Of a stretch of 16,274 bases of DNA, positions 609 to 16,274 are shown piece after piece. The position numbers and the translations under genes are program-made. The notes beneath the pieces are model-generated. The model did not search any database. It was not told the DNA's origin and saw only the letters and a program-made list of their open reading frames with translations. The number at the start of each line of letters is the position of its first letter. Position 1 is the stretch's first letter. Location of the stretch: the IMG/VR virus record IMGVR_UViG_2681813314_000019. The stretch is one strand, 5' to 3'. This DNA is from a virus. Its lineage: Duplodnaviria > Heunggongvirae > Uroviricota > Caudoviricetes.

Positions 609-631
<23 letters not shown>
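413..631 (+). CDS. xis: Lambda-type excisionase Xis (72 aa)
   Basis: The 72-aa product MYLTLQEWNARQRRPRSLETVRRWVRECRIFPPPVKDGREYLFHESAVKVDLNRPVT..LLKRIRNGKKAKS matches my recollection of phage lambda Xis almost residue for residue. It overlaps the start of int by 23 bp, as in lambda. Confidence 0.9.
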
Positions 632-3985
<3,354 letters not shown>

Positions 3986-4133: not shown

Positions 4134-6761
4134 TTATTCTTCTTCTGGCTCGTCGTCAACGTCCACTTCCGGAGCGATTTCATCGTCCCCTTCCGCGGCA
4201 CTGCCATCGATGGTATCCAGATCTTCCTCGTCAACCGGTTCAGCAACACGTTGCAGACCCACTACGTTTTCATCTTCCGCAGTACGGATGAGGATCACGC
4301 CCTGGGTGTTACGGCCTACGATGCTGATTTCCGAAACGCGAGTACGTACCAGCGTACCGGCATCGGTGATCATCATGATCTGGTCGCAGTCATCTACCTG
4401 TACCGCGCTAACCACTAAACCATTACGTTCAGTAACCTTAATGGAGATAACCCCTTTCGTCGCACGCGACTTGGTTGGGTATTCCGCCACTGCGGTACGT
4501 TTACCGTAACCGTTTTGCGTTGCGGTGAGGATTGCGCCATCGCCACGAGGCACGATCAGAGAGACGACTTTATCGCCTTCACCTAAGCGAATACCGCGAA
4601 CACCGGTGGTGTTGCAGCCCATCGCACGGACAGAAGACTCTTTAAAGCGCACCACTTTACCTTCAGCGGAGAACAGCATTACTTCGTCTTCGCCGCTGGT
4701 CAGGTCAACGCCGATCAGCTCATCGCCGTCAACCAGTTTGATCGCCACTTTACCGGCGGTACGCAGACGGTTGAACTCGGTGAGGACAGTTTTCTTCACG
4801 GTACCGTTAGCGGTCGCCATGAAGACTTTCACGCCTTCTTCAAACTCGGTCACTGGCAGGATCGCAGTGATACGTTCGTCCTGCTCCAGCGGCAGCAGGT
4901 TGACGATCGGACGACCGCGCGCGCCACGAGTGGCTTCCGGCAACTGATAAACTTTCATCGAATAGACGCGACCACGGCTGGAGAAGCACAGAATATGGTC
5001 GTGAGTGTTCGCCACCAGCAGTCGGTCGATAAAGTCTTCTTCTTTAATACGTGCGGCAGATTTACCTTTCCCGCCACGACGCTGCGCTTCGTATTCAGAA
5101 AGCGGCTGATACTTAACGTAGCCCTGGTGAGAGAGCGTCACTACCACATCTTCCTGAGTGATCAGATCTTCCAGGTTGATGTCTGCGCTGTTGGCGGTGA
5201 TTTCAGTACGACGTTTGTCACCGAACTGTTCACGAACCAGCTCCAGCTCTTCACGGATCACTTCCATCAAACGATCGGCGCTACCAAGAATACGCAACAG
5301 TTCCGCGATCTGATCCAGCAGCTCTTTGTATTCGTCGAGCAGTTTTTCGTGCTCAAGGCCGGTCAGTTTCTGCAAACGCAGATCCAGAATCGCCTGAGCT
5401 TGCTGTTCGGTCAGGTAGTACAGACCATCACGCACGCCGAACTCTGGCTCCAGCCATTCCGGACGCGCAGCGTCGTCGCCAGCACGTTCGAGCATCGCGG
5501 CAACGTTGCCCAGCTGCCACGGATTAGCAACCAGCGCAGTTTTCGCTTCTGCAGGCGTCGGCGCATGACGGATCAGTTCGATGATCGGGTCGATGTTCGC
5601 CAGCGCCACGGCTAATGCTTCAAGGATATGAGCACGATCGCGAGCTTTACGCAGTTCGAAAATAGTACGACGGGTCACCACTTCACGGCGGTGACGAACA
5701 AACGCCGCGATGATGTCTTTCAGGTTCATGATCTTCGGCTGACCATGGTGCAATGCCACCATGTTGATACCGAAAGAAACCTGCAACTGGGTCTGGGAGT
5801 AGAGGTTGTTGAGCACAACTTCACCGACCGCATCGCGTTTCACTTCAATCACGATGCGCATACCGTCTTTGTCAGACTCGTCACGCAGCGCGCTGATGCC
5901 TTCCACGCGTTTTTCTTTTACCAGTTCCGCAATCTTCTCGATCAGGCGCGCTTTGTTTACCTGATACGGAATTTCGTGGACGATAATGGTTTCACGACCG
6001 GTTTTGGCGTCAACTTCCACTTCTGCGCGAGCGCGGATATACACCTTGCCGCGACCGGTACGGTAAGCTTCTTCAATACCGCGACGACCGTTAATGATTG
6101 CCGCCGTCGGGAAGTCCGGCCCCGGGATGTGTTCCATCAGCCCTTCAATGCTGATGTCTTCATCATCGATATACGCCAGACAACCGTTGATGACTTCCGT
6201 CAGGTTGTGCGGCGGGATGTTGGTTGCCATACCTACGGCGATACCGGAAGAACCGTTCACCAGCAGGTTAGGAATTTTGGTTGGCATGACGTCGGGAATT
6301 TTTTCCGTGCCGTCATAGTTATCAACGAAATCGACCGTCTCTTTTTCGAGATCGGCCATCAGTTCATGGGCAATTTTCGCCAGACGGATTTCCGTATAAC
6401 GCATTGCCGCCGCAGAGTCGCCGTCGATGGAACCGAAGTTACCCTGACCGTCTACCAGCATGTAACGCAGCGAGAATGGCTGCGCCATACGGACGATCGT
6501 GTCATAAACCGCCGCGTCACCATGGGGATGGTATTTACCGATTACGTCACCAACGACACGGGCAGATTTTTTATAGGCTTTGTTCCAGTCATTGCCTAGT
6601 ACGTTCATGGCGTAAAGTACGCGACGGTGTACCGGCTTCAGGCCATCTCGGACATCTGGCAGCGCACGGCCAACAATGACCGACATCGCATAATCCAGAT
6701 AGGAGCTCTTCAGCTCTTCCTCAATGTTGACCGGTGTAATTTCTCTCGCAAGGTCGCTCAT
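4134..6761 (-). CDS. gyrA: DNA gyrase subunit A (875 aa)
   Basis: The full-length product begins [53 protein letters not shown]..., contains the active-site Tyr122 region and ends with the acidic tail ...DDEPEEE. It is essentially identical to E. coli GyrA as I recall it, but codon 83 here is GCG (Ala). Confidence 0.98.
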
Positions 6762-7649: not shown

Positions 7650-7740
<91 letters not shown>

Positions 7741-16194: not shown

Positions 16195-16274
16195 TGAACC
16201 GCCCCGGGAATCCTGGAGACTAAACTTCCTGAGAAAGAGGTAAACAGGATGACTAAAAATACTCGTTTTTCCCC
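16195..16274 (+). mobile_element. IS629-like (IS3 family) insertion sequence, left end only; continues beyond the right edge of the window
   Basis: The terminal sequence TGAACCGCCCCGGGAATCCTGGAGACTAAACTTCCTGAGAAAGAGGTAAACAGG is followed by an ATG at 16249, matching the IS629/IS1203 left end as I recall it. Confidence 0.75.
16249..16274 (+). CDS. IS3-family transposase OrfA, N-terminal fragment (3' partial in window)
   Basis: Translation gives MTKNTRFSP..., the N-terminus of IS629-group OrfA. A GAGG RBS lies upstream. Confidence 0.7.

Follow-up and report, generated by a model that had tools for sequence, protein, structure and literature searches.

The stretch of DNA analysed here, referred to below as the window, is 16,274 nucleotides long and contains, on its minus strand, a complete gene for DNA gyrase subunit A. 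This gene, gyrA, lies in its canonical neighbourhood (yfaT-yfaA-gyrA-ubiG-yfaL-ypaB-nrdA-nrdB-yfaE-inaA), the order being the same as that found in K-12 and in phylogroup-B1 genomes, and the genes inside the window are all intact except for inaA. At one side the series is joined to the end of a lambdoid prophage, while both ends of the window as a whole are formed by termini of IS3-family elements. The features referred to in the following sections are listed here, with strands given for genes and codons:

1-119: IS600 terminus (100% match), which breaks the prophage upstream of xis
120-1679: end of a lambdoid prophage, comprising a hypothetical gene, an excisionase and an integrase (int, 609..1679), and adjoining yfaT
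4134..6761, minus strand: gyrA, DNA gyrase subunit A, 875 amino acids, intact (from the open reading frame list and its translation)
4407..4409, minus strand: gyrA codon 785, AGC (Ser) in place of GGC (Gly), i.e. G785S, the changed base being 4409
5472, minus strand: gyrA codon 430 (D430), synonymous change GAT>GAC, private to the window
6444..6563, minus strand: quinolone-resistance region (QRDR), codons 67-106, in which residue 83 alone departs from wild type
6503..6501, minus strand: gyrA codon 87, GAC (Asp), wild type
6515..6513, minus strand: gyrA codon 83, GCG (Ala), from the minus-strand reading and comparison with reference alleles
7268, plus strand: ubiG codon 121, GGG>AGG, missense change G121R, private to the window
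16195-16274: IS1203/IS629-like terminus, including the start of orfA (97.5% match), which breaks inaA

The gyrA gene and its genomic background

The reading frame at 4134..6761 scores 1308 bits against TIGR01063, the NCBIfam equivalog model for gyrA (cutoff 877), and 579.7 bits against the parC_Gneg model, which is below that model's cutoff of 628.9. Solved structures of E. coli GyrA (6rks, 3nuh) match it from end to end, and the structures that it matches also include some from Mycobacterium tuberculosis (5bs8 and others). The catalytic Tyr122 is present, residues 560-566 form the GyrA box (QRRGGKG), and in comparison with the K-12 protein S83A and G785S are the sole differences. Judged by its sequence, this is the chromosomal gyrA of an E. 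coli of phylogroup-B1 type.

As regards the wider background, the 16 kb of the window share 99.9% identity with E. coli of phylogroup B1, namely of the O111:H8/O26/O103 STEC/EPEC type, and this level of identity to B1 genomes spans the lambdoid int/xis junction. The prophage junction at yfaT is common to O111/O26/O103-type STEC genomes but is missing in K-12, UTME-14, AZ147 and E2980, in all of which yfaT is followed by yfaS (alpha-2-macroglobulin). The setting had been described in the first-pass annotation as IS-rich and Shigella-like. The first half of that description stands, given the IS600 and IS1203-like ends, but the second is not supported, as the best matches, prophage junction included, are to B1 E. 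coli (the comparison being made within a collection made up of E. coli genomes, Shigella not being among them). As a separate observation, the insertion site within inaA in the window differs from the IS600 insertion site in strain 88_1577.

Codon 83 and the quinolone-resistance region

Read on the minus strand from 6518 to 6501, codons 82-87 are GAC GCG GCG GTT TAT GAC, or D-A-A-V-Y-D; codon 82 (6518..6516) is GAC, and codons 84, 85 and 86, which follow the codon of interest, are GCG, GTT and TAT. In K-12 and in the B1 allele closest to that of the window, codon 83 is TCG (Ser), and one transversion, T>G at window position 6515 (A>C as read on the plus strand), turns this into GCG. The claim that codon 83 encodes Ala where the wild type has Ser is thus correct to the base, as judged by the minus-strand reading and the alignment with K-12, and the accompanying statement that Asp87 is unchanged is equally borne out by the GAC at codon 87.

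The bounds used here for the QRDR (GyrA residues 67-106) are those defined in PMC9953508, and the substitution falls on one of the two residues, Ser83 and Asp87, that anchor the drug-binding bridge discussed in the last section. The remaining GyrA positions in PointFinder, namely 51, 67, 81, 82, 84, 87, 106 and 196, are without exception wild type, while S83A itself has an entry there under E. coli gyrA. With Asp87 wild type, the GyrA share of multi-step fluoroquinolone resistance is absent (the window does not extend to parC and parE).

A difference of just one base, in data from one isolate, naturally raises the question of whether the G at window position 6515 might be an artefact of sequencing or assembly. 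The window corresponds, in reverse orientation, to the entire contig CYDM01000065.1 of the NCBI assembly GCA_001284885.1. This assembly and one made from run ERR178166 by Logan, which were produced independently, agree on gyrA, and the change coincides precisely with a site already known for recurrent resistance mutations, an unlikely target for random error. The same isolate's reads are probably behind both assemblies; the fact that gyrA is identical in the two therefore excludes an error of assembly, though not, formally, an error at the level of the reads. All in all, the chance that this base is an artefact is considered negligible.

Origin and recurrence of the alanine codon

In considering whether Ala83 is ancestral or derived, relatives were compared over the 16-kb window, not by means of a genome-wide phylogeny. 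Over this length the two closest genomes are 88_1577, with 12 differences from the window in 16,075 bp, and AUSMDU00014361, with 9; both have TCG at codon 83, and the prophage junction is common to both of them and to the window. Use was also made, as a lineage marker, of a variant at positions 7685-7687, in a REP-like element between ubiG and yfaL, where the window reads CAGGATCTAC, a form unique to it. K-12, 88_1577 and UTME-14 have CAGGCCTAC at these positions, and six genomes (E110019, AUSMDU00014361, 01_3327, 03_3013, Z1323HEC0393 and AREA_497) have CAGTATCTAC, this 'ATC' form being closely related to that of the window. When checked against the 43 Ala83 genomes described below, none of the six was found to carry Ala83 (0/6).

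Further afield, among representatives of 80 gammaproteobacterial species, 57 have Ser at residue 83 and 19 have Thr, with Gly, Ile, Met and Lys occurring once each and Ala not at all (0/80). Because the closest genomes and the 'ATC' group carry TCG, and because none of the 80 species has Ala, the comparison indicates that Ala83 is the derived state and not the ancestral one. The idea that Ala83 might be the natural state of some related species or lineage was rejected on the strength of the same zero count among the species representatives, and the possibility raised in the first-pass annotation, that GCG is the ancestral allele of this lineage, fails, since the closest genomes carry TCG. It is instructive to set beside this the GyrA of M. 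tuberculosis, which naturally has Ala (Ala90) at the equivalent position; there the alanine is the ancestral state of the species, whereas Ala83 of the window is derived on a Ser background.

The frequency of the allele was assessed in 5,426 complete E. coli genomes, using short queries such that every 28-mer megablast seed spans the diagnostic bases; for a codon 83 beginning with GC the query was a 54-mer in which every seed holds both the G and the C. By this count 43 of the 5,426 genomes have a codon 83 of this kind, many of them clonal (O104:H4 genomes and derivatives of EC0026B). A C at base 2 of the codon is found in 3,108 genomes, made up of those with TCG (about 3,065) and the 43 with GC, while T at base 2 is found in 2,308, which are essentially S83L (about 2,300) together with 4 that have S83V. 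A 55-mer centred on base 1 returned 47 genomes, the 4 with S83V (GTG) included.

Carriers of Ala83 (GCG) include O104:H4, ETEC E2980, Ecol_AZ147, UTME-14 and a B2 APEC, and these have differing local haplotypes or gyrA alleles. For O104:H4, E2980 and Ecol_AZ147 it is the ubiG, yfaL or yfaA haplotypes that differ, while in the B2 APEC carrier, which is of type O2:K1:H7, gyrA is 65 nt away from that of the window. Selection on S83A is suggested because the identical T>G is found on several unrelated E. coli backgrounds, and the recurrence of one and the same transversion at an otherwise invariantly hydroxyl-bearing site points to just such a signature.

The closest known counterparts are those of O104:H4 (the 2011 outbreak clone) and E2980 (the ETEC L3 reference strain), both of which have the same TCG>GCG change in a B1-type gyrA allele. 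Their GyrA is the same as the protein of the window except for G785S, and at the nucleotide level gyrA of O104:H4 departs from that of the window at 4 sites and gyrA of E2980 at 5, the window having G785S and the synonymous D430 change where these two strains have neither. In all three S83A is the sole QRDR change. However, the ubiG and yfaL haplotypes flanking gyrA in O104:H4 and E2980 are unlike those of the window, so that neither belongs to its lineage. In UTME-14 and UTME-10 S83A occurs on a local haplotype near-identical to that of the window save for the latter's private SNPs; given this near-identity, the S83A of the window may have come by descent from, or by recombination with, an S83A ancestor.

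Another reading would have S83A arise not by mutation in this lineage but with a gyrA-ubiG segment imported by homologous recombination from an unsampled S83A donor, the linked private SNPs being brought in with it. It is true that 4 of the 9 differences from AUSMDU00014361 fall within 2.9 kb (at 4409, 5472, 6515 and 7268), and that UTME-14 and AZ147 have S83A on the same basic gyrA allele. On the other hand, the clustering of 4 out of 9 is not significant (binomial P ~0.06 before any scanning correction), the three SNPs linked to codon 83 were found in 0 of the 5,426 genomes, and hence no donor is visible, and according to a published analysis recombination is merely an occasional route by which gyrA acquires resistance alleles. 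Import of this kind is regarded as improbable. The density of SNPs in gyrA taken by itself is likewise not significant (the gene makes up 16% of the length and has 3 of the 9 differences; P = 0.17), and an account in terms of recombination or hyper-selection based on SNP clustering was dropped in view of these two P values, for gyrA and for gyrA-ubiG respectively.

The three private changes deserve brief description in their own right. G785S, the second missense change in the protein, lies in the C-terminal DNA-wrapping domain of GyrA; it was found in 0 of the 5,426 complete E. coli genomes, and a search of the literature gave no match to it. Among the 80 species representatives residue 785 is Gly in 74 and Ser in 4. 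The synonymous change in codon 430 (position 5472) was similarly found in 0 of the 5,426 complete genomes. UbiG G121R, which immediately precedes a 13-residue motif, affects the divergently transcribed neighbour of gyrA, and it too was found in 0 of the 5,426. One might imagine that G785S and UbiG G121R are not incidental, and that the isolate records an episode of selection at several linked loci: G785S would then adjust the supercoiling activity of the S83A gyrase, as its epistatic or compensatory partner, or else UbiG G121R would lower ubiquinone and proton-motive force and so add to drug tolerance. There is, in our estimation, very little likelihood that this is so.

The explanation preferred here is that S83A is a genuine, selected, target-site mutation of low effect, which arose by a single T>G change in the lineage's own allele. 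This we hold to be highly probable.

Expected effect on quinolone susceptibility

According to published work, Ser83 and Asp87 form hydrogen bonds to the waters of an Mg2+ ion chelated by the keto-acid of the quinolone (PMC9917921, PMC9953508). In the mechanism proposed for the present case, the C3/C4 keto-acid of the drug would chelate Mg2+, and the waters of the latter would be anchored by the hydroxyl of Ser83 and the carboxylate of Asp87 (the 'water-metal ion bridge'). Ala83 would take away one of these two anchors but, unlike Leu or Trp, would bring with it no steric clash, and the bridge would be expected to persist on Asp87 in a weakened form. The phenotype to be expected is a modest rise in the nalidixic acid MIC (tens of mg/L), along with a rise in the ciprofloxacin MIC that would be 2-4-fold at most and would stay in the susceptible range. 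The allele would have been selected by past exposure to a quinolone, probably nalidixic acid or some low-level quinolone, either in the isolate itself or in a recent ancestor.

Published measurements on S83A are somewhat varied. In O104:H4 with S83A, MICs were 24-48 mg/L for nalidixic acid and 0.03-0.05 mg/L for ciprofloxacin, the corresponding values for O104:H4 relatives with S83L being 128->256 and 0.125 mg/L (PMC3551546). S. dysenteriae 3 with S83A was resistant to nalidixic acid and susceptible to ciprofloxacin (PMC10763507), and a nalidixic acid MIC of 64 mg/L was reported for a Ghanaian E. coli with S83A together with qnrS1 (PMC3051878). ETEC E2980, which also carries S83A, is nalidixic-acid sensitive. 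As to the enzyme itself, cleavage assays on the purified S83A form of E. coli GyrA revealed, unexpectedly, no resistance to ciprofloxacin, and ciprofloxacin-induced cleavage by this enzyme requires more Mg2+; the authors of that study concluded that the Asp87-anchored bridge is left intact by Ala but is sterically disrupted by Leu (PMC9917921). Because E2980 is sensitive to nalidixic acid, and because the purified enzyme is not resistant to ciprofloxacin, the effect of S83A may be small to nil, according to drug and background.

This being so, one must ask whether S83A might be effectively neutral here, i.e. without any measurable quinolone phenotype, and fixed by drift or hitch-hiking. The sensitivity of E2980 and the behaviour of the purified enzyme would both fit with this, as would the fact that further QRDR mutations rarely follow S83A. 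However, residue 83 is hydroxyl-bearing in 76 of the 80 species representatives and Ala in none of them, the identical transversion is found on several unrelated E. coli backgrounds, as described above, and S83A isolates were resistant to nalidixic acid in three other studies (at 24-64 mg/L or by breakpoint). Neutrality is on balance unlikely, although less so than import of the allele, and a selected mutation of low effect is preferred to it.

Comparison with S83L, the dominant first-step mutation of E. coli, is helpful in placing this allele. S83L alters this residue too, and with it the same bridge anchor, and like S83A it is a single-nucleotide change, but at base 2 of the codon (C>T), and its bulky side chain sterically disrupts the bridge. 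It gives higher MICs than S83A, as the O104:H4 values show, its frequency is roughly 50-fold higher (about 2,300 genomes as against 43 out of 5,426), and it commonly precedes parC S80I and gyrA D87N, whereas S83A usually stays alone. The statement in the first-pass annotation that S83A is a documented substitution, weaker than S83L, is upheld both by the PointFinder entry and by the lower MICs of O104:H4. To call it a first-step mutation, on the other hand, is to overstate the case: in a population-genomic study S83A stood out among QRDR mutations as the only one that is typically unaccompanied by others, and it is characteristically not a step towards multi-mutation resistance. S83V (GTG), which is listed in PointFinder, is also rare and also has G as its first base, but it requires two base changes from TCG, and the codon in the window is GCG and not GTG.

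In sum of significance, S83A is an already known and catalogued low-level quinolone-resistance allele, found here in unremarkable chromosomal surroundings of E. coli, and it raises no new biological question. For annotation and surveillance purposes it would be appropriate to flag gyrA S83A and to expect low-level nalidixic acid resistance, with a ciprofloxacin MIC within or near the wild-type range; a label of fluoroquinolone-resistant would be unwarranted for the isolate. It must be remembered that a match to a resistance hotspot does not by itself establish a phenotype: S83A predicts far less resistance than does S83L, and sometimes none, and it rarely leads to high-level resistance.

Some minor observations made in the course of the genome counts may be recorded here. 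GTG (S83V) at codon 83 occurs in 4 complete E. coli genomes, an example being strain 504838 (98.2% identity class), which also has GyrA T408N. In a few genomes of the E. coli collection gyrA is found at two places, and one full-length copy of gyrA, of the type with T at base 2 of codon 83 (S83L-like), belongs to a sequence record marked as plasmid.
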